Below are positions 2,647-50,558 of a stretch of DNA of 64,000 nucleotides, piece after piece. The DNA comes from a virus. The notes under the pieces are model-generated. The model was not told where the DNA came from. It was given only the letters and a program-made list of their open reading frames with translations, and searched no databases. The stretch lies in the IMG/VR virus record IMGVR_UViG_3300044972_002389, positions 102,892-166,891 of that record. The stretch is one strand, 5' to 3'. Position 1 is the stretch's first letter, and each line of letters begins with the position of its first letter. A program made the translations under genes and the position numbers.

Positions 2647-5600
2647 CTACACACCTTTGGCAGTGAGTGCAAGTTCAAGAGCTGTCACACGCTGATTGAG
2701 CTGATCGTTGCTTTCAGCCAACTCTTGCACAGCTCGAATCAACACAGGGAACACGTTAGCTACTGTGGCTTCAAGCTTCTCTGGGTTGTCCTCAAGCACC
2801 AAATGCAGCCAGTCTTGTAGATTATATCGATTGCTGACTTCCAGTACTTCTTGAGCAATAAATCCAGCGCTCTTGACCCCTACTCGGCTGCCATCTCTAG
2901 TATTCCATGTGAATTTTACTGGACGTAGATCACGTATCAGCTGCAATCCCAAAGGAATATCTTCGATGTCAGTTTTGTCTCTAGCATCAGACAAAGCAGT
3001 AATAGTAGTTACCTGAGCTCGCAGTGTAGTAATGCTGGAATCACCAAAAGTTATTGTGTTGTTGCTGGTTGCTGTTGCTCCACTTGCACCGCATCCCAAA
3101 AACACGTTGTTACTGCCATTTGTGTTGCTCGTACCTGCTGATCGTCCTATTGCAGTGTTGTTTGTGCCATTGGTATTCTGCTGTAGGGCAGCGCCGCCAA
3201 TTGCTATGTTTGAATTGGTGGTATTGTTCCTTAGAGCACATGCCCCCAATGCAATGTTGTCACTGCCACAAAAGTTAGTGCCAAGGGCATCAAAGCCCAG
3301 GCCTATATTATTGATACCACTTGTATTAAATTGGAGTGCCCAACAACCAACTGCAATGTTATTGCTACCAGTTGTATTGCATCGTAGAGCACAAGCACCG
3401 ATAGCTGTATTATTACTACCATTTTGGTTGCAACAAAGCGCAGCTAGGCCAAATGCCATGTTAAATAGCCCAGTGCTGCTGGTATTGGATGTGCCTATTT
3501 TATAACTGCTAGTGCAGTCCAAACACGCATATCCACAACAGCCCACAGGGTTGCCGTTTATAGCAAATCCATTCCCATCTATAGCCAGTCGCAGACAACT
3601 GCCAGCAGCAATCAGCACACAAGATACACTGCCTGCTGCTGGTGTTACATTGCCAATTACCGTGTTGTTGAACCCAGTTGTGATCAGACTTCCAGCGTTT
3701 TGGCCAATTGCTATGTTACATGTTCCAGTGGTGTTGGCAGTCAGCGCACCAATACCCAGTGCTATGTTACCAGTCCCAGTAGTATTCTGCTGTAGGGCAG
3801 CGCCGCCAATTGCTATGTTTGAATTGGTGGTATTGTTCCTTAGAGCACATGCCCCCAATGCAATGTTGTCACAGCCACCAGGGTTAATTCCAAGGGCATC
3901 AAAGCCCATGCCTATGTTATTGTTACCACTTGTATTAAATTGGAGTGCTAAACAACCAACTGCAATGTTGTGACACCCGCTAGTATTGCATCGTAGAGCA
4001 GACGCACCGATAGCTGTATTGCTACAACCATTACGGTTGCAACAAAGCGCAGCTAGGCCAAATGCCATGTTAAATAGCCCAGTGCTGCTGGTATTGGATG
4101 TGCCTATTTTATAACTGCTAGTGCAGTCCAAACACGCATATCCACAACAGCCCACAGGGTTGCCGTTTATAGCAAATCCATTCCCATCTATAGCCAGTCG
4201 CAGACAACTGCCAGCAGCAATCAGCACACAAGATACACTGCCTGCTGCTGGTGTTACATTGCCAATTACCGTGTTGTTGAACCCAGTTGTGATCAGACTT
4301 CCAGCGTTTTGGCCAATTGCTATGTTACATGTTCCAGTGGTGTTGGCAGTCAGCGCACCAATACCCAGTGCTATGTTACCAGTCCCAGTAGTATTCTGCG
4401 ATAGGGCAAAGTAACCAATTGCTATGTTGCAACCGGTGGTGTTTGAGCAAAGGGCCAATGCCCCCAATGCTATGTTGTCACTTCCATTCAAGTTAGTGCC
4501 TAGGGCATTAACTCCCATGCCTATGTTATTGCAACCTAGTGTGTTGAATTGAAGTGCCAAACAACCAATTGCAATATTATGAGACCCGTTCTGGTTGCAT
4601 CGTAGAGCAGACGCACCGATAGCTGTATTGCTACAACCAGTTAAATTACAACAAAGCGCCCCTTGGCCAAATGCCATGTTAAATGTCCCAGCACTGCTGG
4701 ACATAAATGTGCCTATTTTATAACTGGAAGTGCAGTCCAAACATGCATATCCACAGCTACCAATAGATGCTCCATTAACATAAAGCCCAGTTCCGTCTAC
4801 TCGCAGTCGTTCACATGCGCCAGCACCAATCAATACAGTGCAAACCAAACCCCCGGTGCCAGACAAATTGCCAATTACCGTGTTGTTGAACCCAGTGGTT
4901 ATTAGGGAGCCAGCGTTTTGGCCAATTGCTATGTTACATGTTCCAGTGGTGTTGGCAGTCAGCGCACCAATACCCAGTGCTATGTTAAATGTGCCATTGG
5001 TATTCTGCTGTAGGGCAGCGCCGCCAATTGCTATGTTTGAATTGGTAAGATTGTTCCTTAGAGCACATGCCCCCAATGCAATGTTGTCACAGCCACCAGG
5101 GTTAATGCCAAGGGCATCAAAGCCCATGCCTATGTTATTGTTACCAGTTAGGTTTAATTGGAGTGCCAAACAACCAACTGCAATGTTATTGCTACCAGCA
5201 GTATTGCATCGTAGAGCAGACGCACCGATAGCTGTATTGCTACTACCATTACGGTTGCAACAAAGCGCACCTAGGCCAAATGCCATGTTATATAACCCAG
5301 TGCTGCTGGACATAAATGTGCCTATTTTATAACTGCTAGTGCAGTCCAAAGACGCATATCCACAGCTACCAATAGATGCCCCATTAACATAAAGCCCACT
5401 TGAGTCTACTTTCAGTCGTTCACAACTGCCAGCACCAATCAATACAGTGTTATTCAAACCCGTAGTGCCAGACAAATTGCCAATTATTGTGTTGTTGCAC
5501 CCAGTTGTGATCAGACTTCCAGCGAGTTGGCCAATTGCTATGTTACATGTTCCAACGGTGTTTGCACCTAGCGCACCAATACCCAGTGCTATGTTAAATG

Positions 5601-8600
5601 TGCCACTGCAATTCTGCTGTAGGGCAGCGCCGCCAATTGCTATGTTTGAATTGGTCTGATTGTTCCTTAGAGCACATGCCCCCAATGCAATGTTGTCACT
5701 GCCACCAGAGGTAGTGCCAAGGGTGCCAAGGGCATCAAAGCCCATGCCTATGTTATTGTTACCACTTGTATTAAATTGGAGTGCCAGACAACCAACTGCA
5801 ATGTTATTGCTACCAGTTGTATTGCATCGTAGAGCAGACGCACCGATAGCTGTATTATTACTACCATTTAGATTAAGACAAAGCGCAGCTAGGCCAAATG
5901 CCATGTTATATAACCCAGTGCTGCTGGACATAAATGTGCCTATTTTATAACTGCTATAGACGTCCAAACACGCATATCCACAGCTACCAATAGATGCCCC
6001 ATTAACATAAAGCCCACTTGAGTCTACTTTCAGTCGTTCACAACTGCCAGCACCAATCAATACAGTGTTATTCAAACCCGTAGTGCCAGACAAATTGCCA
6101 ATTATTGTGTTGTTGCACCCAGTTGTGATCAGACTTCCAGCGAGTTGGCCAATTGCTATGTTACATGTTCCAACGGTGTTTGCACCTAGCGCACCAATAC
6201 CCAGTGCTATGTTAAATGTGCCACTGCAATTCTGCTGTAGGGCAGCGCCGCCAATTGCTATGTTTGAATTGGTCTGATTGTTCCTTAGAGCACATGCCCC
6301 CAATGCAATGTTGTCACTGCCACCAGAGGTAGTGCCAAGGGTGCCAAGGGCATCAAAGCCCATGCCTATGTTATTGTTACCAGTTAGGTTAAGTTGGAGT
6401 GCTAAACAACCAACTGCAATATTGTGACACCCGCTAGTATTGCATCGTAGAGCAGACGCACCGATAGCTGTATTGCTACAACCATTTCGGTTACAACAAA
6501 GCGCACCTTGGCCAAATGCCATGTTAAATGTCCCAGTGCTGCTGGTATTGAATGTGCCTATTTTATAACTGCTAGTGCAGTCCAAACACGCATATCCGCA
6601 ACAGCCCACACCGCTGCCGTTTATAGCAAATCCATTCACATCTATAGCCAGTCGCTGACAACTGCCAGCAGCAATCAGCACACAACATACACTGCCGGCT
6701 GCTGGTGACAAATTGCCAATTATTGTGTTGTTGAACCCAGTTGTGATCAGACTTCCAGCGAGTTGGCCAATTGCTATGTTACATATTCCAGCGGTGTTTG
6801 CAGTCAGCGCACCAATACCCAGTGCTATGTTAAATGTGCCACTGGTATTCTGCTGTAGGGCAGCGCCGCCAATTGCTATGTTTGAATTGGTAATATTGTT
6901 CCTTAGAGCACATGCCCCCAATGCAATGTTGTCACTGCCATTAAAATTAGTGCCAAGGGCATCAAAGCCCATGCCTATGTTATTGTTACCACTTGTATTA
7001 AATTGGAGTGCCAAACAACCAACTGCAATGTTATTGCTACCAGTTGTATTGCATCGTAGAGCACTCGCACCGATAGCTGTATTGCTACAACCATTTCGGT
7101 TACAACAAAGCGCACCTTGGCCAAAAGCAAAGTTGTTTGTTCCTGTACTGACTGTAAGGCCGTTACCAACCTTATAGCTGGCATAGATGTCCAAATTGGC
7201 AGTAGTAGCCGCAACACCTGTTAAAGCAGCGCCGCAACCAAAATAACATCTTGCACACACGTCCCCTGTGCCGTTGTTGACAACCAAACAGTTTGCGTCA
7301 ACTCTTAGTCTTTCGTTTGTTCCAGCGCCTATCAACACTGTGTTCACACAATCAGCTGTGCCAGCCAAGTTACCAATTACTGTATTACTGCACCCAGTTG
7401 TTATTGAAAAACCTGCACAAACGCCTATACCAATGTTGCTGTTACCAGTTGTGTTGCAGTTCAGGGCCATGAATCCAAGTGCTGTATTGAAACAGCCTAT
7501 AGTATTTGACTTAAGACTATTCCCGCCAACCGCAGTATTGCACAAACCTATTGTGTTAGCTGTAAGGCTGCAAGTGCCTATACCAACATTTTCCACTCCT
7601 GTGGTATTGGCGTCTACAGCATAAGCCCCAATTCCAATGTTGTTAAAGCCTGAGGTATTAGCCCCCAATGCAAAGGCACCAAAACCTATGTTTTGGCATC
7701 CTATTGTATTGTTTTGAAGTACTTGCTCACCAACCGCAGTGTTGTAGCCACCAGTTGTAGTCCTTCTCAAGGCAAAATGTCCCAGAGCCACATTGGCTGT
7801 TCCCTGTGTGCCACTTACGCAACAAAGAGCCCCGTTACCAACACCAATGTTACCACACGGCCCGCCTCCTAACATCATGGTGTCAATGCCTATTGCGATA
7901 TTACTGCGCCCAGTTGTGCTTGCACACATGCTGCTGCTGCCAAATGCCAAGTTTTGACATCCAAAACCGTTGTTGACCAAAGCTAGACAACCAACTGCAA
8001 TGTTATCTGCTCCAGTAGCAGTAGTATTGCCAGCATTATATCCCAACTGCACATTCGACCCAACAGGAGTGTTGGCATAAACTGTCCCCAAACTTGTGGG
8101 AGTAGCAGCAGACACACTTCCGCCGCTAATGCCAGTTAAACCAGCACCACAGCCAAAGAAGCAGCGAGCACACACATCACCAGTGCCATTGTTTACAACT
8201 AGACAATTGGCGTCAACACGGATACGTTCAGTAGCCCCTGCGCCAATCAATACAGTGGCGGTGAGGCCAGCACAACCTGATAAATTACCTATAATAGTAT
8301 TGCTGGTTCCGGTTGTGATATTACCCCCACTGCTGTTGCCAATTGCTATATTACATGCACCAGTAGTTGTGTTGAGTAGCGAAAGAACACCAATGCCAAT
8401 GTTGCAGTTGCCAGTATTAGCGGCCAAAGCACATCTGCCCATTGCAATGTTACGAACTCCTACTGTATTGCTGGCCAAAGCAAATGGCCCAACAGCAACG
8501 TTGCTACCACCCGATGTGTTTGCAGCTAGTGAGCATGCGCCAAGAGCAATATTGCATGCTCCAATGGTGTTGGCACATGATGCGTAGTGGCCGATAGCTG

Positions 8601-9783
8601 TATTCAAGGTTCCTGTTGTGTTGGCAGAGAGGGCAAACGATCCAAATGCAGCATTGTCTGAACCAACTGAGCTGCTGCACATGCTGGAGAATCCCAAAGC
8701 AATATTGTTGCAGCCTGTGGTGTTGCAGCGCAAAGCATTTGAGCCCACAGCGATGTTCCATAAGCCGTTAGTGAGTCCTCCCAGGGCACTGCTGCCAACA
8801 GCTACGTTGTCTGATCCACTCACACTATTGAACAGGGCACAGTCACCAACAGCAATGTTCCGACTGCCACTGGTGTTGTTAAACAAACTGTTGTTGCCAA
8901 CAGCAATGTTCAAGTTGCCTTGGGTATTGCAACGCAAGGCGCTTGTGCCCAGTGCAGTATTGTAGCTGCCTGTTGTGTTGCACAACAGGGTGGCTTCACC
9001 AAATGCGGCATTGAAGCTGCCAGTGGTATTAGTGCACAGACTGTTCCGCCCAACAGCCACATTCATTTGGCCCACAGTGTTGGCATATAGTGCACACCGC
9101 CCTACAGCCACGTTCCAATTGCCAGTTGTGTTTGAGAACAACGCGTCGCTGCCAAGGGCAGTATTTTCTTGCCCAATCGTATTGGATTTGAGCGCGTCTA
9201 CCCCCACGGCAGTGTTTTGAACGCCAGTTGTGTTATTGCTGAGCGCCAAACAACCAATAGCAATATTTTCTGTGCCTGTGCTGGTTGTGCTGCCTGCACA
9301 GTATCCTATTGCAGTGTTGGAGTTGTTGCTTGTGAGGCCATACACAGTTCCCAATTGAATTGGAGTTGCTGCTGAAACTGCCCCGCCAGAAATGCCAGTT
9401 AAACCAGCACCACAACCAAAGAAGCAGCGGGCACACACATCACCAGTGCCATTGTTGACAACTAGACAATTGGCGTCAACACGCAATCTCTCAGTTGTGC
9501 CAGCACCAATCAGCACAGTGTCAACGAGGCCTGGGGTACCAGCCAACTGCCCAATCACTGTGTTGGCACAGCCTGTTGTGATGCTACCACCAGCATAGAC
9601 ACCTAGACCCATGTTCAGAGAGCCGGTTGAGACAGCCAGAAGAGCCCCACCACCAAAAGCTGTATTGCTAACACCTGTGTTGAGATTACAAAGTGCATTG
9701 ATACCCACGGCTGTGTTAAGTGCAGTCGTATTGCATCCTGTACTATTGGGAATCACTATATTCCCACAAATTTTTATCGCCAT
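2647..9783 (-). CDS. giant tail fibre/spike protein with Hep_Hag-like NxAxG beta-helix repeats and C-terminal intramolecular chaperone (peptidase S74-type) domain
   Basis: 2378 aa, extremely Gly/Asn/Thr/Ala rich, with NIAIG/NTAIG repeat units. The C-terminus (TITALSDARDKTDIEDIPLGL...VQELAESNDQLNQRVTALELAL) matches the autoproteolytic intramolecular-chaperone module of endosialidase and T5 L-shaped fibre (Ser-Asp...Lys). Confidence 0.8.
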   Translation of the reverse strand: MAIKICGNIVIPNSTGCNTTALNTAVGINALCNLNTGVSNTAFGGGALLAVSTGSLNMGLGVYAGGSITTGCANTVIGQLAGTPGLVDTVLIGAGTTERLRVDANCLVVNNGTGDVCARCFFGCGAGLTGISGGAVSAATPIQLGTVYGLTSNNSNTAIGYCAGSTTSTGTENIAIGCLALSNNTTGVQNTAVGVDALKSNTIGQENTALGSDALFSNTTGNWNVAVGRCALYANTVGQMNVAVGRNSLCTNTTGSFNAAFGEATLLCNTTGSYNTALGTSALRCNTQGNLNIAVGNNSLFNNTSGSRNIAVGDCALFNSVSGSDNVAVGSSALGGLTNGLWNIAVGSNALRCNTTGCNNIALGFSSMCSSSVGSDNAAFGSFALSANTTGTLNTAIGHYASCANTIGACNIALGACSLAANTSGGSNVAVGPFALASNTVGVRNIAMGRCALAANTGNCNIGIGVLSLLNTTTGACNIAIGNSSGGNITTGTSNTIIGNLSGCAGLTATVLIGAGATERIRVDANCLVVNNGTGDVCARCFFGCGAGLTGISGGSVSAATPTSLGTVYANTPVGSNVQLGYNAGNTTATGADNIAVGCLALVNNGFGCQNLAFGSSSMCASTTGRSNIAIGIDTMMLGGGPCGNIGVGNGALCCVSGTQGTANVALGHFALRRTTTGGYNTAVGEQVLQNNTIGCQNIGFGAFALGANTSGFNNIGIGAYAVDANTTGVENVGIGTCSLTANTIGLCNTAVGGNSLKSNTIGCFNTALGFMALNCNTTGNSNIGIGVCAGFSITTGCSNTVIGNLAGTADCVNTVLIGAGTNERLRVDANCLVVNNGTGDVCARCYFGCGAALTGVAATTANLDIYASYKVGNGLTVSTGTNNFAFGQGALCCNRNGCSNTAIGASALRCNTTGSNNIAVGCLALQFNTSGNNNIGMGFDALGTNFNGSDNIALGACALRNNITNSNIAIGGAALQQNTSGTFNIALGIGALTANTAGICNIAIGQLAGSLITTGFNNTIIGNLSPAAGSVCCVLIAAGSCQRLAIDVNGFAINGSGVGCCGYACLDCTSSYKIGTFNTSSTGTFNMAFGQGALCCNRNGCSNTAIGASALRCNTSGCHNIAVGCLALQLNLTGNNNIGMGFDALGTLGTTSGGSDNIALGACALRNNQTNSNIAIGGAALQQNCSGTFNIALGIGALGANTVGTCNIAIGQLAGSLITTGCNNTIIGNLSGTTGLNNTVLIGAGSCERLKVDSSGLYVNGASIGSCGYACLDVYSSYKIGTFMSSSTGLYNMAFGLAALCLNLNGSNNTAIGASALRCNTTGSNNIAVGCLALQFNTSGNNNIGMGFDALGTLGTTSGGSDNIALGACALRNNQTNSNIAIGGAALQQNCSGTFNIALGIGALGANTVGTCNIAIGQLAGSLITTGCNNTIIGNLSGTTGLNNTVLIGAGSCERLKVDSSGLYVNGASIGSCGYASLDCTSSYKIGTFMSSSTGLYNMAFGLGALCCNRNGSSNTAIGASALRCNTAGSNNIAVGCLALQLNLTGNNNIGMGFDALGINPGGCDNIALGACALRNNLTNSNIAIGGAALQQNTNGTFNIALGIGALTANTTGTCNIAIGQNAGSLITTGFNNTVIGNLSGTGGLVCTVLIGAGACERLRVDGTGLYVNGASIGSCGYACLDCTSSYKIGTFMSSSAGTFNMAFGQGALCCNLTGCSNTAIGASALRCNQNGSHNIAIGCLALQFNTLGCNNIGMGVNALGTNLNGSDNIALGALALCSNTTGCNIAIGYFALSQNTTGTGNIALGIGALTANTTGTCNIAIGQNAGSLITTGFNNTVIGNVTPAAGSVSCVLIAAGSCLRLAIDGNGFAINGNPVGCCGYACLDCTSSYKIGTSNTSSTGLFNMAFGLAALCCNRNGCSNTAIGASALRCNTSGCHNIAVGCLALQFNTSGNNNIGMGFDALGINPGGCDNIALGACALRNNTTNSNIAIGGAALQQNTTGTGNIALGIGALTANTTGTCNIAIGQNAGSLITTGFNNTVIGNVTPAAGSVSCVLIAAGSCLRLAIDGNGFAINGNPVGCCGYACLDCTSSYKIGTSNTSSTGLFNMAFGLAALCCNQNGSNNTAIGACALRCNTTGSNNIAVGCWALQFNTSGINNIGLGFDALGTNFCGSDNIALGACALRNNTTNSNIAIGGAALQQNTNGTNNTAIGRSAGTSNTNGSNNVFLGCGASGATATSNNTITFGDSSITTLRAQVTTITALSDARDKTDIEDIPLGLQLIRDLRPVKFTWNTRDGSRVGVKSAGFIAQEVLEVSNRYNLQDWLHLVLEDNPEKLEATVANVFPVLIRAVQELAESNDQLNQRVTALELALTAKGV
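3200..7400 (-). repeat. about 7 tandem coding repeat units of 609-618 bp (203-206 aa) inside the tail fibre gene
   Basis: Opposite-strand ORF translations are identical at 3512/4121 (offset 609) and at 5447/6065 (offset 618). The protein unit CGYACLDCTSSYKIGTF..STG.FNMAFG..ALCCN recurs about 7 times. Boundaries are approximate. Confidence 0.7.
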
Positions 9784-10056: not shown

Positions 10057-11319
10057 ATGTCTATCGCCAATGACGATTCAGCTATGACCAAGATCCGCAA
10101 GGCTCGATTGAAGTTGATGTTCACCCATCCTTTTTTCGGAACATTGGTCATGAACCTTCCGGTTAAGGACGCAACTGATGCTGGATGGTGCCCGACTGCT
10201 GCGGTTGATGGTCGATATATCTACTACAACCGAAATTTCATCAACGACCTATCAGTTGATGAAGTGCTGTTTGTTTTTGCGCACGAGTGCTACCATTGTA
10301 TCTTTGATCACTTTGGTCGACGCAGCCATCGTGATCCGCAGTGGTTTAACATGGCCAATGATTACGTTATAAACGGCCTACTTGTGCAAGACAAGATTGG
10401 CAAAATGCCAGAAAAAAAGGTAGAAGTTAAAGACGCTGATGGCAAATCCACCCAGCGTGTTGGCCTCTACGACAGCAAGTATCTGGGCTGGACGTCAGAA
10501 AAAGTCTATGACGACCTTGTAAAGCGCAAGGTGAAGAAACAGCTTACTCTCGACGTGCACATTGAGATGGGCAAAGATGCCCAAAACTCAGATGGGCAAA
10601 AAAGCAACCAAGGCATTCCTGTTGAGATTGATGAGGAAAGCCTCAAACAGCTTCGAGCTGAGCTCAAAGACAAGGTTCTGCAAGCTGCCAATGCCTCTGC
10701 TGGAAATCTTCCAGCCAGCATTGCACGTCTTGTGGACCATCTTGTGGAGCCCAAGATCAACTGGCGTGACTTCATTCGCGAGACTATTCAAAGCCAACTC
10801 ACAAGCGACTACACCTACCGGCGCCCCAATCGTCGCCATCATGGTGGTGATGTGGTGTTTGCCAGCCTGGAGCGTGAGGAAACTGTGGATGTGGAGGTCA
10901 GCATTGACCAAAGCGGCAGCATCTCTGCTGACATGGCACGCGACTTTCTAAGTGAAGTTTTGGGGATAACTTCACAATATGATAATTTCCGGCTTGCAGT
11001 CAGCACCTTTGATACCCGGCTCTATAATCGCCAGGAGTTTACTCCAGAAAACATTGAAGAGCTGCTGGAGTATGAGCCCATGGGTGGCGGCGGAACCGAC
11101 ATTTCTGTGGTTATTAGATCACTCAAGGAAATGAATGTTGAGCCCAAGGTATTGATCATCTTCACAGATCTTGAATCAAGTGAGTTTGGCGAGCCCAATT
11201 TCTGTCCCGTTGTTTGGCTTGTCAACAATCCTTGGAACAAGAATATCGTTCCGCCGTTTGGTACCTGGGTGCGGTTCACAAAAGAAGAAGGGGTGGCTGA
11301 AACAGGAGATGCAGGCTAG
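10057..11319 (+). CDS. putative metallopeptidase (HExxH) fused to vWA domain, DUF2201-like
   Basis: FAHECYHCIFDH (HExxH) is in the N-terminal half. VEVSIDQSGSIS (D-x-S-x-S MIDAS) is in the C-terminal half. Strong RBS. Confidence 0.6.
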   Translation: MSIANDDSAMTKIRKARLKLMFTHPFFGTLVMNLPVKDATDAGWCPTAAVDGRYIYYNRNFINDLSVDEVLFVFAHECYHCIFDHFGRRSHRDPQWFNMANDYVINGLLVQDKIGKMPEKKVEVKDADGKSTQRVGLYDSKYLGWTSEKVYDDLVKRKVKKQLTLDVHIEMGKDAQNSDGQKSNQGIPVEIDEESLKQLRAELKDKVLQAANASAGNLPASIARLVDHLVEPKINWRDFIRETIQSQLTSDYTYRRPNRRHHGGDVVFASLEREETVDVEVSIDQSGSISADMARDFLSEVLGITSQYDNFRLAVSTFDTRLYNRQEFTPENIEELLEYEPMGGGGTDISVVIRSLKEMNVEPKVLIIFTDLESSEFGEPNFCPVVWLVNNPWNKNIVPPFGTWVRFTKEEGVAETGDAG

Positions 11320-11333
11320 ATAATTGCCTCAAT

Positions 11334-11360
11334 AGGCGGAAGTTATTTCCGCCTATTTTT
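11334..11360 (+). terminator. rho-independent terminator
   Basis: aggcggaa-gttat-ttccgcct 8-bp stem followed by ATTTTT. It sits between convergent genes and overlaps the last codons of the HNH gene. Confidence 0.5.
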
Positions 11361-12278
11361 AGCACTTGCAGACATTTTTCTTTTTGACTCGTCAGAATGT
11401 TTGAGACCTTGTCTGCTTTCACTGATTTTCTTTTTTGTCTCATCCGAAAGCTTGCGACCTTTGTTATTTTCGCTGATTTTCCTTTTTGTTTCTTCAGATT
11501 GAGTTTTACCCTTTTTAATCTCGCTCATTTTCTGTTTTGACAAATCGCTGTGTTTCTTTCCTTTGAACGGGTTAACCATTCCGTTGGTGTAATTCTGCTT
11601 GTTTTTTTGACGTGATTTTTCTTTTACTTCTTCGCTGCGCGGAATGCCACGGAGTTTACTGACCTTGCCCATATTGATTTGGGATAATAAGGCTCTAGTT
11701 TGCTCGGATACAATACGACCCTTCAATTTAGCTGCGCGTTTAGCCACTAATTCTAGTGGCTGTTTTTTACCTTTCAAAGCTTCTGATCTTTTTCTATTGG
11801 ACTCCTCTGAGGGAGTTCTGCCTTTGCTACTTTCTCCTATCTTCTTGCAGGTTTCTGGTGAATGTTTTCTGCCTGTCCTGACTTGTGATACCATCTTTCT
11901 GCACTTCTCATATAGAGATGCAGTAACAAAATGTGAATTTGTTCGATAACCTACCATATAATTCAGTGCATAAATCATTTTAGCTTTCGCTGAGTCAGTA
12001 GATACTATATAAATCAATAGTTGATGACATAACAAATGTTCTCTTGCTGTGAGGCGAACTAAATTCGAAGGGTCATTTGAATTTCCTTCAATCCATCCTC
12101 TTGTACCCTTCCGATTACGATGTAAAAAGAAAGAGTCAGGGACTATGTGATGTTGTTCTGTATACCCAACAAGTTGACGAATTCTTGCTGATTCAATTAT
12201 ACTGTAATACCATTGAGTGTATTTGTTGTCTAAATACGGATGGTTGATAGGCAAAGATACCCTAGGCAATAATTTCAT
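11343..12278 (-). CDS. HNH homing endonuclease with C-terminal NUMOD3 repeats
   Basis: EQHHIVPDSF...NLVRLTAREHLLCH is an HNH motif. Downstream lie 4-5 repeats of GKKHSDLSKQKMSEIKKGK/TQSEETKRKISENNKGRKLSDETKKKISE (NUMOD3-like). ATG at 12278 with AAGGAG RBS; the ORF-track start at 12374 is upstream. Confidence 0.75.
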   Translation of the reverse strand: MKLLPRVSLPINHPYLDNKYTQWYYSIIESARIRQLVGYTEQHHIVPDSFFLHRNRKGTRGWIEGNSNDPSNLVRLTAREHLLCHQLLIYIVSTDSAKAKMIYALNYMVGYRTNSHFVTASLYEKCRKMVSQVRTGRKHSPETCKKIGESSKGRTPSEESNRKRSEALKGKKQPLELVAKRAAKLKGRIVSEQTRALLSQINMGKVSKLRGIPRSEEVKEKSRQKNKQNYTNGMVNPFKGKKHSDLSKQKMSEIKKGKTQSEETKRKISENNKGRKLSDETKKKISESRQGLKHSDESKRKMSASAKNRRK

Positions 12279-12392
12279 GCTGAATGCTCCTTCATAGCGT
12301 TTAGAGCGGTCGGAGAGGTTAGAGGCTCGCGGACCGCAATTGTATTTAGTGTCAATTTTGACACGTACACACATAATTGTACAAACTCTGCT

Positions 12393-16483: not shown

Positions 16484-17371
16484 ATGCTGCTGCACACATT
16501 AGTTGACCGAAAACTCATACACCCGCCCAAGTGGTTGCCCGACAACACTCAATTTCTGGGCTATGCTGGTAGTGCTGCCTATGGTGTCAGCAACGACACG
16601 AGTGACATGGACTGCTTTGGCTTCTGCATCCCGCCCCGTGAGATTGTGTTCCCCTTCACCGACGGCGGCAGGGTGTATGGCTTTGGCACACAGGAACAGC
16701 GGTTTCGAGTGTGGAGCGAGCATCACATTCAGCTGCCGGATCAACGGAAAGAGTTGGACTTTTCTATTTATAATATCGTTGATTTTATGCAACTGGCGAT
16801 GGAAAATAATCCAAATGTTTTGGACGTTCTCTTTCTTCCCCGCCGCTGCATTCTCCACAGCACCAAAATCGCAGAGCATGTGAGAGAGCATAGGAAAGAG
16901 TTCCTCCACAAAGGAGCTATGGGAAAACTTCGGGGATACGCATTTTCACAAATTTCAAAAATTCGCAACAAAACCAACAGCAGCAATCCCAAAAGAGCTG
17001 CCACTATTGCTGAACACGGATGGGATCTGAAGTTTGGAGTGCATGTAGTGAGGCTCATGCTGCAATGCGAGCAGATCCTGGTAGAGCATGACCTTGACAT
17101 TGAGCGCAACAGCGAGGTGCTCAAGAGCATTCGGCGAGGTGAGTGGACACTAGAGCAGCTGGACAGTTGGTTTGATGTCAAGGAAAAATCTCTAGAGACA
17201 CTACATGCCAACAGCACGTTGCGAGATAAGCCAGATGAGAAGAGGATCAAACATCTACTTCTTGACTGTTTGTCAATGCACTATGGCCCTCTCACCACCG
17301 GTGTCAAGCGAGAAACTGGTGTTGATCAACTGGTAAATGAGCTGCAAACTGTGCTGGATAGATATCGATAA
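16484..17371 (+). CDS. predicted nucleotidyltransferase (Pol-beta superfamily)
   Basis: GSAAYGVSNDTSDMD fits the GS-x9-13-D-x-D nucleotidyltransferase motif. 295 aa. Confidence 0.5.
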   Translation: MLLHTLVDRKLIHPPKWLPDNTQFLGYAGSAAYGVSNDTSDMDCFGFCIPPREIVFPFTDGGRVYGFGTQEQRFRVWSEHHIQLPDQRKELDFSIYNIVDFMQLAMENNPNVLDVLFLPRRCILHSTKIAEHVREHRKEFLHKGAMGKLRGYAFSQISKIRNKTNSSNPKRAATIAEHGWDLKFGVHVVRLMLQCEQILVEHDLDIERNSEVLKSIRRGEWTLEQLDSWFDVKEKSLETLHANSTLRDKPDEKRIKHLLLDCLSMHYGPLTTGVKRETGVDQLVNELQTVLDRYR

Positions 17372-25940: not shown

Positions 25941-26177
25941 ATGAACAACAAACCCAAACCCACTCCCGCCCGTCTTGTGCGCAGCCTCATCACCCTGCTG
26001 GGTACACCTCGAATCCTGTTCAGCGACCGCATTCAAAATGGTCGCAGCATCAAGGTATGGGGGTGGGATGAACGCCTCTACAGCGAGGCCAGCATGATCC
26101 TTGCGCGGCATGGCTACCGTGTGCGCAAGGTAAAGACCTCGTTTGGCAGCACTCGTCTTCACGTGTTTGAGAAATAG
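25941..26177 (+). CDS. small basic protein (78 aa)
   Basis: MNNKPKPTPARL... is the internal start of ORF 25620..26177, placed directly after the candidate promoter. Confidence 0.35.
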   Translation: MNNKPKPTPARLVRSLITLLGTPRILFSDRIQNGRSIKVWGWDERLYSEASMILARHGYRVRKVKTSFGSTRLHVFEK

Positions 26178-26188
26178 GAAAACCGGTT

Positions 26189-26560
26189 ATGACCGATGAT
26201 CTCGGAAACCTTTCTGACAATGACTTCAAGCGCCTAGTGCACCTGGTGAACGAGATCATCCACCTAAGCCACGAAGGTGCTCGAGAAGGGCAAGCTCGGG
26301 CACACGACATCTACGCACTGTCACGAGATGCACGCGACATCTTGATCCTGGACGAAACCAGTCGGGAAGCTATGCGACGCCTCACAAATACTGAACGTCC
26401 CACCATGTATGGGGTCACCATCAGCAAGTCTGTGGAAGACTATGTTCGTGCTGGCATGAAGATCAATGCCATCAAAGAGCTGCGAACTGAAACGGCTCTG
26501 GGCCTGAAAGAGGCCAAGGACGTTGTGGAGGCTTTTGCCAGCACAATTACGCCCTTTTAG
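26189..26560 (+). CDS. protein with ribosomal bL12 (L7/L12) C-terminal-domain-like segment
   Basis: C-terminal [23 protein letters not shown] versus E. coli bL12 [21 protein letters not shown], about 14 of 20 identical. The N-terminal 75 aa are unrelated and the protein ends shortly after the motif. Confidence 0.55.
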   Translation: [123 protein letters not shown]

Positions 26561-26572
26561 GCACATCTTTGG

Positions 26573-26600
26573 TTGACAACACTCAATATCCTGCTATGTT
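26573..26600 (+). promoter_or_regulatory. sigma70-type promoter (consensus family)
   Basis: TTGACA-16-TGcTATGTT. Confidence 0.5.
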
Positions 26601-26624: not shown

Positions 26625-27212
26625 ATGACCAACAAGCCTCAGAAGATCGTTGTTCACAAGCACGCCGCCAAGCGGTTGTTTCATGTGAGCATTCACAATG
26701 TTGACAGCAAGGCTGCTAACACCACTTGGCAGGGTATTGCAGGCAAGAGCCGTTATGCATATGAACAGGGCTTGGTAGGCAACTACAAGAACGATCGCGT
26801 TCTCACTGGTGGGCTGATGCTGGCTTTTGTCAACACCCAATATGAGGGTTGGGAAACACAGGACGTGGAGGGCGAGTTTCCCAACATGATCCGTGCTGCT
26901 GAACACAAGGAACAGGTGGCGGATCAGCTGATCCAGGAGGGTCTTACAAACGTTGGTGTGCGCAATGTGAACAGCAAGCGCGATCCCAGCAGTGATGGCA
27001 TGGGCAGCAACTGGAACGCCAAGTTCAACCCCAACCGGATGACAATGGCCAAGGTGAACGAGAAGATTGACTGGATCAACACAAGCCTGCAGATGAACAT
27101 CTCTCGAGACGTTCGGAGCCGGGCACTGCGGGCAGTGATTGGTGCTAACGGCAATGTGGACAGCATGGCTGGCCTGCTCCGCTTCATCCGACAGGAAATG
27201 GGCCTGGTTTGA
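26625..27212 (+). CDS. hypothetical protein (195 aa)
   Basis: ORF after a consensus promoter. Confidence 0.5.
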   Translation: MTNKPQKIVVHKHAAKRLFHVSIHNVDSKAANTTWQGIAGKSRYAYEQGLVGNYKNDRVLTGGLMLAFVNTQYEGWETQDVEGEFPNMIRAAEHKEQVADQLIQEGLTNVGVRNVNSKRDPSSDGMGSNWNAKFNPNRMTMAKVNEKIDWINTSLQMNISRDVRSRALRAVIGANGNVDSMAGLLRFIRQEMGLV

Positions 27213-27574: not shown

Positions 27575-28786
27575 ATGAGCAAGTTCAGTTGCCCTGTGGT
27601 GCGTGTGGCCGCAGTCGAAGAACATCCGAATGCGGATCGCCTTTCTCTTGTGCGCCTTGAAGGCCTCGGTTATCTCTGCATCGCAAACAAACTAGAGGAT
27701 GGTAGCCCGCGCTACAAGCCCGGTGACTGGGTCGTATACATTCCCTCAGCCTCGGTGCTGCCTGAATGGCTGCTCAAGGACATGGGATTTTGGAACGAAG
27801 ACGCTGGTAAGGGTGTGCTGGCAGGCAGTGATGGCAACCGTGTGAAGCCACTCAAGCTGCGTGGTATTTTCAGCGAAGGTGTGCTGTATGGGCTCATTGC
27901 ATATGGTGATGACGATTGCCTTTCTGCTGATTTTGGGTCGGCGACGGATGTACATGTAGTAGGCAAAGACAGTCTTGAATATCCAGTCAAGCTAGGCGAG
28001 GATGCTGCTGCAATCTTGGGCATCACCAGGTGGGAGCCGCCCATTCCCGCTGCGATGTCTGGTGAAGTTGCCAGTGTTGCTGAGGCTGCTCTTACCTACG
28101 ATTTTCAGCGTTGGGAGAGCGTGCCTGACATCTTCGAACCTGGTGAGGTGGTGGTGGCCCAAGAAAAAATTCATGGATCTTGTACCATCATCCAGTACTT
28201 CCCAGGCATGGACCATCCCGAGATGTTCCCCGACCATGCAGGCTACCGCAGCATCACTGTCAGCAGCAAGGGACTAGGCGGTCAGGGTTTGGTGTTCAAG
28301 AACAACGAAGCCAACGCCAACAACCTCTATGTGCGGGCACTTGGCACACTGCTAGCCGACCATGACCTCGCCGGGCTCCTCCACAGGATGAGCAAGGTGG
28401 ACGGCGGTGCTCATCCGGTGGCTATCCTGGGAGAAGTTTTCGGCAAGGGCGTGCAGGACCTCGACTACGGCACCACTAAGCCCACGTTCCGGGTGTTCGA
28501 CATGCGGATCGGGCGGGAGTGGCTAAGTCCCGATGCCGTGGCCTACTGGGCAAAGGACCTGCCCTGTGTACCTACCCTCTACACTGGCCCCTTTGACCAA
28601 ACTGCCATTGAGGCTGTGAGAGACGGTGTCACAACGGTGGGTGGCACCAATGTGCGGGAAGGTGTGGTGGTGCGCAGCCTGGTTCCCACCGAGCATCCCC
28701 TGCACGGTAGGAAAATCTGCAAATTCATCTCTCCGGCGTATCTGCTCCGCCGAGTGAAGAACGGCGAGGCAACGGAGTTCAACTGA
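27575..28786 (+). CDS. ATP-dependent RNA ligase, Rnl2-like nucleotidyltransferase domain fused to N-terminal tRNA-binding OB domain
   Basis: N-terminal VAAVEEHPNADRLSLVRLEGLGYLCIANK resembles the tRNA_bind (Trbp111/EMAP-type) OB fold. VAQEKIHGSCTII matches T4 Rnl2 motif I (VAREKIHGTNFSLII). EVFGKGVQDLDYG, REGVVVR and RKICKFISP parallel motifs III to V. Confidence 0.7.
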   Translation: MSKFSCPVVRVAAVEEHPNADRLSLVRLEGLGYLCIANKLEDGSPRYKPGDWVVYIPSASVLPEWLLKDMGFWNEDAGKGVLAGSDGNRVKPLKLRGIFSEGVLYGLIAYGDDDCLSADFGSATDVHVVGKDSLEYPVKLGEDAAAILGITRWEPPIPAAMSGEVASVAEAALTYDFQRWESVPDIFEPGEVVVAQEKIHGSCTIIQYFPGMDHPEMFPDHAGYRSITVSSKGLGGQGLVFKNNEANANNLYVRALGTLLADHDLAGLLHRMSKVDGGAHPVAILGEVFGKGVQDLDYGTTKPTFRVFDMRIGREWLSPDAVAYWAKDLPCVPTLYTGPFDQTAIEAVRDGVTTVGGTNVREGVVVRSLVPTEHPLHGRKICKFISPAYLLRRVKNGEATEFN

Positions 28787-30885: not shown

Positions 30886-30914
30886 GGTTGACACAGTCTG
30901 TCTGTGCTGTATAT
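30886..30914 (+). promoter_or_regulatory. sigma70-type promoter (consensus family)
   Basis: GGTTGACA-17-TGTATATT, then AAGGAG RBS and ATG 30940. Confidence 0.45.
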
Positions 30915-30939
30915 TGAAGCTACACAAGGAGAACAACAA

Positions 30940-31422
30940 ATGGAAGCCACGCCTGATCTAGCTGTCTACGTGCTGGCCCGAACTGATCTGCCCAGTATGA
31001 ACCCAGGAAAGCTGGCTGCACAAGTACATCATGCTGGAACCCAGATGATGAGCCTATTTGCAGATCATCCACTAGTTCAACAGTATGTTGCCGACGGTGT
31101 CTCACAAGGTGCCTACTACTTCAACACCACAATTGTGCTGGGTGCCACAATGGACCAGCTTCATGGTCTGAGATGCACTTATGGTTGGGAATACCACCTC
31201 ACTGTCAAGGGGTCAGTCGTCGACCCCAGCTACCCATTTTTTGTGGAAAATCAAGAGGTAGCTGATCTTGTTGCAGCTAATGGCAAGGCAGCTGTCATCA
31301 AAACCATGGATGATGGGCGTGTGCTGATGACTCGCCAAGAGACCACTTGCATTTGGTGCCTTGTGGATCGCAACAAGCCCGAAGTTTCAGACATTCTAGG
31401 CCATCTCAAACTCTATCCCTAA
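30940..31422 (+). CDS. PTH2-like (peptidyl-tRNA hydrolase 2 family) protein
   Basis: LAVYVLARTDLPSMNPGKLAAQVHHAG parallels the PTH2 N-terminal motif MVLVVRxDLxMGKGKIAAQxxHA. The remainder is divergent. Confidence 0.45.
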   Translation: MEATPDLAVYVLARTDLPSMNPGKLAAQVHHAGTQMMSLFADHPLVQQYVADGVSQGAYYFNTTIVLGATMDQLHGLRCTYGWEYHLTVKGSVVDPSYPFFVENQEVADLVAANGKAAVIKTMDDGRVLMTRQETTCIWCLVDRNKPEVSDILGHLKLYP

Positions 31423-33083: not shown

Positions 33084-33364
33084 CAGAAGACAGAGTCTTC
33101 CACAATGCGCTGCTTTTGTTTCCCAAAGATCTTTTCTGCTGCTCTGTTACACTTGGCGAGGAATACTACCGCCAACAATACGAAATCTTGGATTGGCTAC
33201 GCCAACAAGGACCTGGTGACACTGGAATTGGTGATCCACCACAAGGTGAGTGCGTTTGGGCATATACACAGCTTTTTGGATACCAGTATATCGCTTTCCC
33301 CACTAGGGAACTGGTGACGCATTTTCAGCTGGTTTGGCAAAACAACACAGGACATAGTGGTTGA
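33056..33364 (+). CDS. possible LTW-family relative
   Basis: C-terminus FPTRELVTHFQLVWQN resembles the family motif. Cys/Trp-rich. Confidence 0.4.
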   Translation: MEFHCDSQVTEDRVFHNALLLFPKDLFCCSVTLGEEYYRQQYEILDWLRQQGPGDTGIGDPPQGECVWAYTQLFGYQYIAFPTRELVTHFQLVWQNNTGHSG

Positions 33365-33389
33365 CACGGATGTGCAGACTCTGTATGTT
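33361..33389 (+). promoter_or_regulatory. candidate sigma70-type promoter
   Basis: TTGACA-17-TGTATGTT, then AAGGAG and ATG 33414. Confidence 0.4.
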
Positions 33390-33413
33390 GTGGGTGTTGC
33401 AAAGGAGACGGAT

Positions 33414-34139
33414 ATGCGAATTGATGTGCCCAGCATCGTAAATGATCCCCAGATGAGAACCTTGCCCTATTGGCTGGAGGTATATCCCAATCAGGATCAA
33501 GCTCGCCGGGCTCGAGCACTGGCTCGCAAGGCGTATGATCGCACACGGCTAGCTGAGGTGCAGCGTTGGCGCTGCTGCTGGTGTCACTGCGAGATGCGTG
33601 GCGAACAAGGCTTCAAGAACAGTGCCACCATTGAGCACATCACTCCTCGCAGTTGTGGTGGCACTGACCACATCACCAACTTGGCTGTGGCGTGTGGCCG
33701 ATGCAACAACCGTCGAGGCAACACGCCCTGGGAAGATTTCCTGCAGGCTATGGAAATGAGTCGGCCCGCGCCTGAGACTGGCAGCTTTCGCTCACTGGCT
33801 TTTGAACGTAAGATGCGCCGAGAGGCTGCTGAGCAGAACAAGCGCATCAAGCAGTTGACTCATTTGGTGCGCAACCACGAGGTGCAAGCCACTGCTACTC
33901 AAACGCGACGCGAACAGTGCAAGTCACTGGAAGCCCAATACTCAGACATGCTGCCAGGATTGCAGCTGGCTGGTTTCCAACGAGCCAAGAGGATGCGTCG
34001 CGAAGTTGACCGTCAACTGGCACTGCAAGCCCTCTCACAAAAGGTCAGCAACCCTTTTGAAGTGGACAGTCGGCCCTGGCGCATCTACGAGCGTATGCGT
34101 AACAAGCAGAGTGTTGACACACTGCAAGCAGCCGCTTAA
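33414..34139 (+). CDS. HNH endonuclease
   Basis: CCWCHCEM...ATIEHITPRSCGGTDHITNLAVACGRCNNRRGN is an HNH motif with a C4 zinc site. ATG at 33414; the ORF-track start at 33357 is a GTG. Confidence 0.7.
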   Translation: MRIDVPSIVNDPQMRTLPYWLEVYPNQDQARRARALARKAYDRTRLAEVQRWRCCWCHCEMRGEQGFKNSATIEHITPRSCGGTDHITNLAVACGRCNNRRGNTPWEDFLQAMEMSRPAPETGSFRSLAFERKMRREAAEQNKRIKQLTHLVRNHEVQATATQTRREQCKSLEAQYSDMLPGLQLAGFQRAKRMRREVDRQLALQALSQKVSNPFEVDSRPWRIYERMRNKQSVDTLQAAA

Positions 34140-35511: not shown

Positions 35512-36729
35512 ATGCACTACACGTTTCCCGAGATCACGCACCTGGATCAAGTGCTGGAAGCTGTCCAGGGTGTGGAAGGCTTCATTGTAGCCCAGCGGCC
35601 CTGGGGCACTGTGGTCAACTACATTCAGATGGGCCCGGACATGTTCCCCGAGGTCCATACTGCTGGAGGCAGCGCCAGCATGCGCGAGCGGCAGACTCGA
35701 CTCAAGGCTATCCGCCGGGAGTGTAGGGGGCTGCTGTTCAGCCTTGATGGAAAGTTGGTGAGCCGCGCATTTCAGAAGTTTTGGAACGTGGGCGAACGGC
35801 GCGAGACTTTGATTGAAAACATCGATCTCACTCAGCCACACATCATCCTTGAGAAGTTGGATGGAAGTATGATTCGTGCTCTACCTCTAGGTAAGGGCTA
35901 CTGTCTTGCAACCAAGATGGGGCCCACTGCTGTAGCAGCACAGGTTGAGCCGTTCGTGGCAACTCGAGACAACTATGACCGATTTATCCGAGACACACTG
36001 GAGCAGGGATACACTGCCTGTTTCGAGTGGTGTACTCGTCAACAAAAGATTGTGTGTGATTATCCAGTTGATCGACTGGTGCTGACTGCTGTGCGTCACA
36101 TCAACTCGGGTGAGTATCTCACCTACTCTCAGATGCAGGAACTGGCGGCCGAGTATGAGCTGGATCTAGTCAAGGCCTATCCTGGTACTGTGGCTAGCAT
36201 GGAGCAGCTCGTTCGGGAGACGCATGAGCTGGAAGGCGAGGAGGGGTGGATCATCCGGTGGGATGATGGACATATGGCCAAGTTGAAATCGGCCTGGTAT
36301 GTGCGTATCCACCGTGCCAAGGATGCTCTCACGCAGGAGAAGAACCTCATCGACCTCATGCTGGCGGAAAAGCTGGACGACGTCAAGAGCTTTCTGCCTG
36401 TGGAGGACCTGGCTCGCATCGACGCCTACGAGAACGCCTTCTGGACGGGTGTGGGGCAAACTGCCTACATATGGAAGGACCAGTATGTCAAGCTCCGGCG
36501 GCAGTTTGGTGACGATAGAAAGCGGTTTGCACTGGAGGCAGCACCGGGTCTTGAGCCCAACCTGCGTAGTGCTGTGTTCAAGGTCTGGGCCCGTGAGGGC
36601 CACGTGGACTGGCGTGAGCTGGTGTGCGATGTGATCCGCAAATGCACTGGCACGCAGACCCGGGTGGACGAGGCACGCTCACTGTTCCGTGCGCCGCGGT
36701 GGAGCCAGCAAAGTGTGGGAGACGAATGA
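35512..36729 (+). CDS. rnlA: T4 Rnl1-family RNA ligase
   Basis: Collinear matches to T4 Rnl1: [25 protein letters not shown] vs [40 protein letters not shown] vs ILTKEDGSLV (motif I KxDG); [19 protein letters not shown] vs [43 protein letters not shown] vs [24 protein letters not shown]. Confidence 0.8.
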   Translation: [405 protein letters not shown]

Positions 36730-45852: not shown

Positions 45853-46953
45853 ATGTTTGAAAATGTAGATTTTGGCATTCGAGAAGATCATTTTGGCCAT
45901 GGGCTGTGTAGCCGGATGCGGTTGGAGTTTCTCAGCCAGCAAACCGGCGCGACAATGGTAGTGTGTCGAGCTGTGAAGCTGGAAATGCGCCGCAACATCG
46001 TAGACGTGTTCACTGGTATGGAAAGCCTCCTAAACAAGACTTTTCCTGAGGCAGAGGGCACTTGGCAGTTTGTGCAAGTAGATCCTGACTACTGGATGAT
46101 CCAGAATAGCAGTATGTTCATTATTGGTGAGCAGCGCAGTGCAAACAGCCGACGCAGTTGGGGGTATGATGAAGGCAGCGTTCGTGTGAACCGTGCCAGC
46201 ATCGAGGCATATGGAACTCCAGACCGGGTTAACCAGCTGCTGACTGCTGTGGAAGACACGTTCCAAGATCGCACTTTTACCAAAATCACGTGGTATTACA
46301 AGGATGGTTCTTCGGTGGACTATCGCAGCCTCTACGTTGATCAGGACAACCAGATTCAAAACAGCTTTTATCCTTGGTTCACACAAGGTGTTGATGCCTT
46401 CATTGAAGATTACCTGACTAGCACAGGCACAGTGCTACTCCTCTATGGGCCACCTGGAACTGGCAAAACCAGCTTTCTCAAGCATCTCATTTGTAGCCGG
46501 CGCATGAATGCGATCGTCAGCTACGATGAAGACATCCTGCGTGATGATCGCTTTTTCATTGACTTTTTGGCTGATGATGAGCACAACATCATGATCATCG
46601 AGGATGCTGACCTGCTGCTGAGCAATCGAGAAAGTGAACAGAACAAGATCATGAGCAAGTTCTTGAATGTCAGTGATGGCATTGTGAAGGTGGCCAGCAA
46701 GAAGATGGTGTTCACTACCAATATTAGCCAACTAAACAAGGTGGACCCAGCTTTGCTACGCAAGGGGCGTTGCTACAGTGCAGTGGAGTTCCGCAACATG
46801 AGTCCAAATGAGGCTGCCCTTGCTGCTGAGTCTGCTGGTGAACCCCAGCAAAACTGGAAAGGTAAGGAGCATTGGACACTAAGTGAAGTTTTCAATCGCG
46901 ATATTGCCACAGCAGAAGTTACGCCTACAATGGGATTTGGTTTCCGGGTTTGA
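45853..46953 (+). CDS. classic-clade AAA+ ATPase
   Basis: Walker A GPPGTGKTS, Walker B IMIIEDADLL, and second region of homology VFTTNISQLNKVDPALLRKGRC. Confidence 0.75.
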   Translation: MFENVDFGIREDHFGHGLCSRMRLEFLSQQTGATMVVCRAVKLEMRRNIVDVFTGMESLLNKTFPEAEGTWQFVQVDPDYWMIQNSSMFIIGEQRSANSRRSWGYDEGSVRVNRASIEAYGTPDRVNQLLTAVEDTFQDRTFTKITWYYKDGSSVDYRSLYVDQDNQIQNSFYPWFTQGVDAFIEDYLTSTGTVLLLYGPPGTGKTSFLKHLICSRRMNAIVSYDEDILRDDRFFIDFLADDEHNIMIIEDADLLLSNRESEQNKIMSKFLNVSDGIVKVASKKMVFTTNISQLNKVDPALLRKGRCYSAVEFRNMSPNEAALAAESAGEPQQNWKGKEHWTLSEVFNRDIATAEVTPTMGFGFRV

Positions 46954-50481: not shown

Positions 50482-50558
50482 TTTTATTTCCCAGCTGTTC
50501 AACTTGATTTAACCCAGTATCCTAGGACAAAATAGCAGTATAGGTATTGGAGATTGAG

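Follow-up and report, generated by a model that had tools for sequence, protein, structure and literature searches.

Is a small phage protein that resembles part of ribosomal protein bL12 (L7/L12) a ribosomal protein, a fragment of one, or a different kind of molecule that could engage the translation machinery of the host? The question is raised by a gene in a 64,000-nucleotide stretch of viral DNA (IMG/VR record IMGVR_UViG_3300044972_002389, positions 102,892 to 166,891; referred to here as "the window"), where positions 26189 to 26560 of the plus strand, stop codon included, form a complete gene that starts with ATG and encodes 123 amino acids. An initial annotation, made from the sequence alone, had read the product as a truncated bL12 C-terminal domain (CTD) fused to an unrelated N-terminal region and had proposed a decoy or adaptor for translational GTPases. 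We conclude that it is very probably a small, conserved two-domain protein, composed of a family-specific N-terminal domain (N-domain) and one short bL12-hairpin module, rather than a bL12 orthologue or a one-off truncation. It may plausibly act as a translation-factor mimic, judging from sequence and predicted structure. Throughout, coordinates are positions in the window, and residue numbers refer to the 123-amino-acid protein unless they are marked as those of bL12.

The bL12-like segment and its limits

Alignment to the Pfam hidden Markov model (HMM) of the bL12 CTD (Ribosomal_L12, PF00542), which the initial annotation had suggested as a check, is significant (31.6 bits, with a gathering cutoff of 25.9; E = 2.1e-7) and confirms the CTD-like segment. 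The match covers residues 90 to 120 (26456 to 26548, plus strand), which fall on profile positions 11 to 41 of 67 (31 positions) and correspond to helices α4 and α5; it contains the 23-residue motif pointed out in the initial annotation, at residues 92 to 114 (26462 to 26530). A single-sequence phmmer search of the PDB returned only bL12 chains (E = 0.004 to 0.04), and a profile of the C-terminal 50 residues of the phage family to which the protein belongs (81 members collected) matched PDB bL12 at E = 6.5e-9 to 4.7e-7, over Escherichia coli residues 62 to 94. By direct reading, 14 of 20 residues (70%) are identical between residues 95 to 114 and residues 69 to 88 of E. coli bL12, as the annotation had estimated; the E. 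coli sequence used agrees with the PDB alignments obtained. The conserved α4-α5 factor-binding hairpin of bL12 is present in the protein. Across the 81 members, the equivalents of bL12 residues are kept at frequencies of 0.99 (V66, as isoleucine), 0.99 (I69), 0.93 (K70), 1.0 (R73), 0.99 (L80), 0.82 (K81), 0.76 (E82), 0.96 (K84), and 0.84 (D85), with K96, R99, K107, E108, K110, and D111 of the window protein standing for K70, R73, K81, E82, K84, and D85 of bL12.

The protein is no orthologue of bL12. With the equivalog model TIGR00855 it scored 24.3 bits, the cutoff being 84.4, and aligned only over residues 87 to 119 (model positions 66 to 98); the dimerization and uL10-binding domain of bL12 (PF16320) had no match in the 123-amino-acid protein at E ≤ 10; and hhalign comparison of an N-domain profile with E. 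coli bL12 returned a probability of 0.2%. One of 33 N-domain sequences gave a marginal Ribosomal_L12_N match (E = 0.093). A complete α/β CTD is not present, a local HMM of the bL12 β2-α6-β3 tail finding no match. Orthology was rejected on the TIGR00855 score, the missing bL12 N-terminal domain, and the incomplete, all-helical CTD, in agreement with the initial annotation, in which the N-terminal ~75 residues were considered unrelated to bL12 and the product no true ribosomal subunit.

AlphaFold2, run with the family alignment, gave an all-helical model with a mean predicted local distance difference test (pLDDT) score of 80 and no β-strand. The family-specific N-terminal helical domain spans residues 1 to 67 (26189 to 26389, plus strand), with predicted helices at residues 10 to 33, 38 to 53, and 56 to 66 and, in the alignments, the motif ARDARDLLxFDxxSRE. 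It is followed by a linker of lower confidence at residues 68 to 77 (26390 to 26419, plus strand; pLDDT, 58 to 77), which has a conserved GVTIS turn with a nearly invariant G75. The short bL12-hairpin module occupies residues 78 to 119 (26420 to 26545, plus strand), with helix 0 at residues 80 to 87, an α4-like helix at 91 to 102, and an α5-like helix at 106 to 119 (pLDDT, ~90). Modeled alone, the C-terminal 50 residues again formed three helices (pLDDT, 85; predicted template modeling score, 0.64).

The bL12 CTD is a β1-α4-α5-β2-α6-β3 sandwich, whereas the phage protein ends 9 residues past α5 and has a helix (VEDYVRAG) as the counterpart of the β1 segment of bL12 (FDVILKAAG). Foldseek searches of the PDB with the whole model found nothing (best E = 4.1), and searches with the module model found nothing below E = 1. 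The likeness to the CTD seen in the initial annotation holds for the α4- and α5-like helices and not for the α/β domain with its β-sheet. "Truncated CTD" describes the partial coverage of the profile correctly and misdescribes the segment as a one-off truncation, which it is not: it is a self-contained, three-helix unit of ~40 residues.

The N-domain had no match in Pfam, PHROG, or NCBIfam. When a profile of the N-terminal 73 residues was searched against 5.8 billion proteins, 54 proteins were found (100 to 135 amino acids, plus fragments of 51 and 73 amino acids), on contigs ranging from <1 kb up to 485 kb, and the wider motif among them is HEIYxLARDxRDLLxFDxxSR. In these data, the N-domain appears to be confined to proteins of the phage family long enough to hold the module too. 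Two divergent members (P0025, 192 amino acids; P0144, 206 amino acids) have a weakly related N-terminal region and carry two modules, which shows that duplication of the module extends to the phage family.

The open reading frame (ORF) at 26189 to 26560 is a real gene: it has 81 relatives, a ratio of nonsynonymous to synonymous substitution rates (dN/dS) of ~0.25, and a location on a phage contig of ~326 kb. Conserved motifs occur in both halves of the family alignment, and the dN/dS value, calculated against a homologue with 76% identity, holds for both halves, each of which is under purifying selection. The identical 123-amino-acid protein is present on 28 contigs, the largest of 328 kb. A Shine-Dalgarno-like AGGA (26176 to 26179, plus strand) was read directly from the sequence 9 nucleotides 5′ of the start codon; it overlaps the end (stop codon) of a small upstream ORF.

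The short module beyond the phage family

We define the short bL12-hairpin module operationally as ~37 to 42 residues comprising helix 0, an α4-like helix, and an α5-like helix, without the β2-α6-β3 tail of bL12. Local HMMs were made for the module and for the tail, and copies without the tail were classed as short. The window protein, with its three confidently modeled helices, belongs to this class and scores 88 bits with the module HMM. In an exhaustive HMMER search, the family profile matched 13,499 proteins, true bL12 included, among 1.84 billion cluster representatives (E ≤ 1e-3); this result is driven by the module, many best matches spanning only profile positions ~80 to 122 and recurring 3 to 6 times per protein. 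Nearly all module copies were short (440 of 457, in 171 proteins), and the 17 complete CTDs were confined to 4 proteins. Copies are separated by a median spacing of 62 residues, with linkers rich in alanine, proline, and serine. A short-module consensus of 37 residues was derived from 384 copies outside the phage family, and the 35-residue module segment of the window protein agrees with it, helix 0 included.

Existing resources describe these sequences only in part. Pfam covers the short modules by PF00542 positions ~10 to 37 only and by the C-terminal end of DUF6793, NCBIfam covers them by the C-terminal end of PRK06771 ("hypothetical protein"), and six PHROG families of unknown function match the module. 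Cluster names looked up for module proteins were uninformative. Six small proteins (P0003, P0009, P0010, P0016, P0045, and P0057) are annotated variously as "ribosomal protein L7/L12," "hypothetical protein," and, in one case, "N-acetylmuramoyl-L-alanine amidase"; the L7/L12 and amidase labels are very likely misannotations that would inflate counts of viral ribosomal proteins.

A census of partner domains in 116 multimodule proteins showed nearly all of them to be bare arrays. A scan of species-representative genomes, for which a single protein served as the query, located 36 chromosomal loci with 1 to 3 short modules each and no bL12 tail. They derive from Myxococcota, Chloroflexota, Planctomycetota, Melainabacteria, Actinomycetota (Streptomyces and Brachybacterium), Gemmatimonadota, Acidobacteriota, Verrucomicrobiota, Clostridiaceae, and one Thermoplasmata metagenome-assembled genome. 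Two layouts recur, (i) a transmembrane helix, a short coiled segment, and the module and (ii) a zinc ribbon, the module or modules, a transmembrane helix, and a β-propeller; in both, the module lies on the predicted cytoplasmic side. Five small bacterial proteins (L026, L030, L040, L043, and L045) have an N-terminal transmembrane helix, a conserved RLxxLExKLDLLLxxLG segment, and one short module, a layout that probably corresponds to the DUF6793/PRK06771 architecture. Membrane proteins of a Chloroflexota type (L013, L035, L036, L038, P0135, and P0160) combine a cytoplasmic zinc ribbon and 1 to 3 short modules with one transmembrane helix and, outside the cytoplasm, an NHL/β-propeller; these are possible transmembrane signaling proteins, with the module as the cytoplasmic output.

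Complete CTDs are also found away from bL12. Three large bacterial proteins with a high guanine-plus-cytosine content (P0030, P0041, and P0155) carry 4 to 7 tandem complete bL12 CTDs, followed in two of them by LRV/HEAT-type repeats, and represent a separate, uncharacterized extraribosomal use of the full domain.

Among viruses, IMG/VR held 44 confirmed loci with a related segment, one of which matched the whole protein; the others matched the module only and had different N termini. A tblastn search of cultured phages with the 123-amino-acid protein found Streptomyces phages of the Samistivirus type only (E = 5e-4 to 3e-3), and the same search with the 37-residue consensus gave only three matches, the short query being limiting. 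Streptomyces phage EGole gp3 (L009, 2953 to 3393; also in 28 related phage records) is a 146-amino-acid hypothetical protein with the same C-terminal module, which is the only part to align convincingly; no convincing relationship links its N-terminal part to the window protein. The Samistivirus-type Streptomyces phages (~130 to 135 kb) have the module gene at two places per record, near an Lsr2-like gene, and the two copies probably reflect a location in the terminal repeat. In the Sinorhizobium jumbo phage Phosso (469 kb), gp509 (L046, 2219 to 2740) is a 173-amino-acid hypothetical protein with a bL12-like hairpin in midprotein, after a β1-like stretch, and with a polynucleotide kinase encoded a few genes away; it may be a more complete variant of the CTD.

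A possible docking site for translational GTPases

How might such a module work? Our leading proposal, held tentatively and drawn from sequence comparison, is that the phage protein is an adaptor whose module holds on to a conserved partner in the cytoplasm; the likeliest partner is the G domain of a translational GTPase. The exposed, charged α5 and the flanking α4 surface (K96, R99, K107, E108, K110, and D111) would dock host EF-Tu, EF-G, or IF2, in a mode patterned on the contact of bL12 helices 4/5 with helix D of EF-Tu. The N-domain would supply a phage-specific activity or a second partner, and the protein would act off the ribosome rather than as a part built into the stalk. Passages of two papers (PMC5770553 and PMC3299993) that cite Kothe 2004 and Helgstrand 2007 describe bL12 helices 4/5 as contacting helix D of EF-Tu and also IF2, EF-G, and RF3.

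One argument for an adaptor that would dock in this way concerns α5, whose hydrophobic moment points the same way in bL12 (302°), the phage family (304°), and other short modules (308°). Because α5 buries the same face in all three, the equivalents of K81, E82, K84, and D85 are exposed, and core packing fails to explain their conservation. The bL12-equivalent positions are likewise conserved in the 384 unrelated short-module copies, figures that are biased toward similarity in that the copies were retrieved by the phage family's own profile. A literature search for residue-level bL12 mutants gave nothing usable; the roles of individual bL12 residues are taken as Kothe 2004 and Helgstrand 2007 reportedly describe them. 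The fixed combination of N-domain and module, and the selection on both halves, fit a two-handed adaptor, and tandem modules on flexible linkers resemble the multicopy, tethered bL12 CTDs of the stalk. The predicted cytoplasmic placement of modules in membrane proteins and the detection of a phage bL12-domain protein in 70S preparations (PMC6375957) count in favor of docking as well. Extended to the whole set, short modules would be extraribosomal, stalk-like docking sites for GTPases, often membrane-tethered in bacterial arrays, while phage single copies on private N-domains would, in infected cells, capture EF-Tu, EF-G, or IF2 or move it elsewhere. We consider this general form doubtful; if it is true, the jumbo-phage protein would link an elongation or initiation factor of the host with a target specific to the phage.

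Besides the retrieval bias, several observations weigh against docking. The hydrophobic face of α4 is turned by ~50 to 75° toward I69/V66 (300° in bL12, 15° in the family, and 352° in other modules), and glutamate is found here at positions 71 and 75, whose bL12 counterparts face the sheet. Helix 0 probably packs in part on the hydrophobic V66/I69 patch, which in bL12 is exposed and touches EF-Tu; I92 and I95 may accordingly be conserved for structural reasons, their burial being deduced from hydrophobic moments only. The modeled fold is a generic three-helix bundle and not the bL12 α/β domain, and the module profile found no chain of EF-Ts, the other known EF-Tu-binding hairpin, at E ≤ 10. 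Gene context offers no help either: the neighbors of the 36 cellular module genes (133 flanking ORFs) are heterogeneous, with no recurrent translation-related gene, and no recurrent translation-related or otherwise conserved functional neighbor was seen around the distant phage homologues. Finally, the isolated bL12 CTD reportedly binds factors weakly, and a single module copy would therefore need the help of the N-domain.

The most serious competitor, to which we give considerable though less than even credence, is that the module is a generic, autonomous three-helix unit for interaction or stability, that its likeness to bL12 reflects common ancestry only, and that it binds another cytoplasmic ligand or associates with itself. 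The small phage protein would then serve host takeover or some accessory task, would owe all of its specificity to the N-domain, and would have nothing to do with translation factors. Such a unit has difficulty accommodating the exposed α5 charges, which are identical to those of bL12 and are kept at frequencies of 0.66 to 0.96 across divergent proteins and phyla; this is hard to understand unless they all share a universally conserved ligand. The stalk-like design of the tandem arrays, with their flexible linkers, also counts against it.

The arguments from surface conservation that favor an adaptor apply equally to a decoy or inhibitor, which would sequester EF-Tu, EF-G, or IF2 or block the bL12-binding site and thereby shut off or reprogram host translation, and the position of the gene among small co-directional genes is typical of early or host-takeover regions. 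This reading takes the idea of the initial annotation in its stronger form. Yet the phage depends on host translation and carries protective RNA-repair and PTH2-like genes, and many cellular proteins, in which one would hardly expect a translation poison, contain the module. One weak module would, moreover, have to compete with at least four bL12 CTDs per ribosome, on tens of thousands of ribosomes, and with a very abundant EF-Tu. We judge a decoy improbable.

Less probable still, and in our estimation very unlikely, is a genuine stalk component in which the N-domain, in place of the bL12 N-terminal domain, attaches to uL10 and brings a minimal, phage-made CTD to the ribosome. A phage bL12-domain protein has been seen in 70S preparations, by a single peptide, although tagged viral bL12 proved unusable for affinity purification of ribosomes (Mizuno et al., PMC6375957). 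The marginal Ribosomal_L12_N match of one N-domain is outweighed by the hhalign, PF16320, and TIGR00855 results, and the protein has neither the parts of the CTD that touch uL11 and round off the fold nor an Ala/Pro-rich hinge. Chance similarity in noncoding sequence or a spurious ORF, for which the sole argument is the shortness of the match (31 residues), is refuted by the PF00542 match above its gathering cutoff, the PDB profile matches (E, ~1e-8), the 81 homologues, whose two halves both contain conserved motifs, and the dN/dS of ~0.25, and can be set aside almost entirely.

Genomic setting

The adaptor candidate is carried by a jumbo phage, on a metagenomic contig of 326 kb (ERZ27272062 k141_697863). 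The window is phage DNA, as judged from this contig together with its S74 tail fiber chaperone domains, ThyX, homing endonucleases, and RNA ligases. The gene is surrounded by small co-directional phage genes, and rplJ is not adjacent, which places it outside an rplJ-rplL operon. Directly downstream lies a 195-amino-acid ORF (26625 to 27212), which, together with the RNA ligase, is retained beside the gene in close relatives only. In the 64-nucleotide gap before this ORF is a good sigma-70-like promoter match (26573 to 26600, plus strand; TTGACA, a 16-nucleotide spacer, and TG-TATGTT); a scan of the region for promoters and terminators gave no more matches than shuffled sequence would lead one to expect. 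A nucleotide search of the 6-kb neighborhood against 50,697 phage genomes gave no match. Distant phage homologues also lie in runs of small co-directional genes, with rIIB, spanin, DNA polymerase III α, and Clp protease genes nearby.

Several genes of RNA repair and translation maintenance are dispersed along the plus strand, namely, an RlaP nucleotidyltransferase (16484 to 17371), an RNA ligase with a PHA02142 OB-fold (27575 to 28786), a PTH2-like peptidyl-tRNA hydrolase fragment (30904 to 31422), a T4 Rnl1-like RNA ligase (35512 to 36729), and a Pnkp-like AAA_33 kinase plus metallophosphatase (47236 to 48468). Their presence suggests that the phage counters host defenses that target tRNA. 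Also on the plus strand are genes for a DUF2201 metallopeptidase/VWA-like protein (10057 to 11319), an HNH endonuclease (33357 to 34139), an AAA ATPase (45853 to 46953), and ThyX (50547 to 51491). The minus strand encodes a NUMOD3 homing endonuclease (11343 to 12374), a 603-amino-acid ORF (51488 to 53299) and a giant ORF of 2378 amino acids (2647 to 9783), both with a C-terminal Peptidase_S74 intramolecular chaperone domain, and a giant ORF of 3310 amino acids without any Pfam domain (54048 to 63980). The giant ORFs are probably giant tail fibers.

Comparison with known systems

The closest structural reference is the bL12 CTD (PF00542; PDB 1CTF), whose α4-turn-α5 hairpin is homologous to that of the phage protein, with the equivalents of V66, I69, K70, R73, L80, K81, E82, K84, and D85 conserved. 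The phage protein differs from bL12 in that it is without the N-terminal domain, the hinge, β1, β2, α6, and β3, and in that helix 0 takes the place of β1.

That metagenomic phages carry bL12 genes, as the initial annotation stated, is documented: Mizuno et al. 2019 (Nat Commun 10:752; PMC6375957) described phage bL12 domains in unrelated proteins and varied contexts and considered them possible interfaces to translation factors. Virus-encoded bL12-domain fusions and the idea of a link to translation factors have thus been known since 2019. The window protein is like those proteins in being phage encoded and in joining a PF00542-type segment to unrelated sequence. It differs from the cases in cultivated phages, which involve other proteins in genomes of <80 kb (bL12 of uncultivated phages was also reported); the short three-helix form was not separated there from the complete CTD, and the present family is not among the named examples (PMC6375957). 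A literature search on DUF6793, PF00542, and "bL12-like" yielded no paper on what the short module does. The distinction between complete CTD and short module, the wide distribution of the module, and the jumbo-phage family with its fixed N-domain appear to be undescribed in the literature searched.

EF-Ts offers a second comparison. Its N-terminal, UBA-like domain is also a small three-helix domain, in which a helix-turn-helix binds the G domain of EF-Tu, and published work recognizes its likeness to bL12 helices 4/5. The third helix of EF-Ts follows the hairpin, whereas the extra helix of the module precedes it. Some short modules gave weak tsf matches (E, ~1e-3); the window protein had none at E ≤ 10.

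If the module docks translational GTPases, thousands of uncharacterized bacterial and phage proteins become candidate recruiters of EF-Tu, EF-G, and IF2 off the ribosome, and an unrecognized layer of translation control and phage takeover would come into view. Even if docking proves false, PF00542 matches limited to positions ~10 to 40 indicate a distinct three-helix module instead of a ribosomal protein; tallies of "virus-encoded ribosomal protein bL12" and L7/L12 labels assigned automatically to such small proteins should be read with the short module in mind. The phage protein is one among thousands that bear the module, and the mimicry model for it is weakened by one structural inference.

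A further comparison is with other short-module proteins. The C termini of DUF6793 and PRK06771 proteins and the tandem arrays share the ~37- to 40-residue combination of helix 0 and hairpin without the bL12 tail, although the window protein itself matched neither DUF6793 (none at E ≤ 10) nor, at the cutoff of 90 bits, PRK06771 (16.5 bits). Cellular module proteins are often membrane anchored or multicopy, whereas the window protein has a single copy, joined to an N-domain unique to its phage family.
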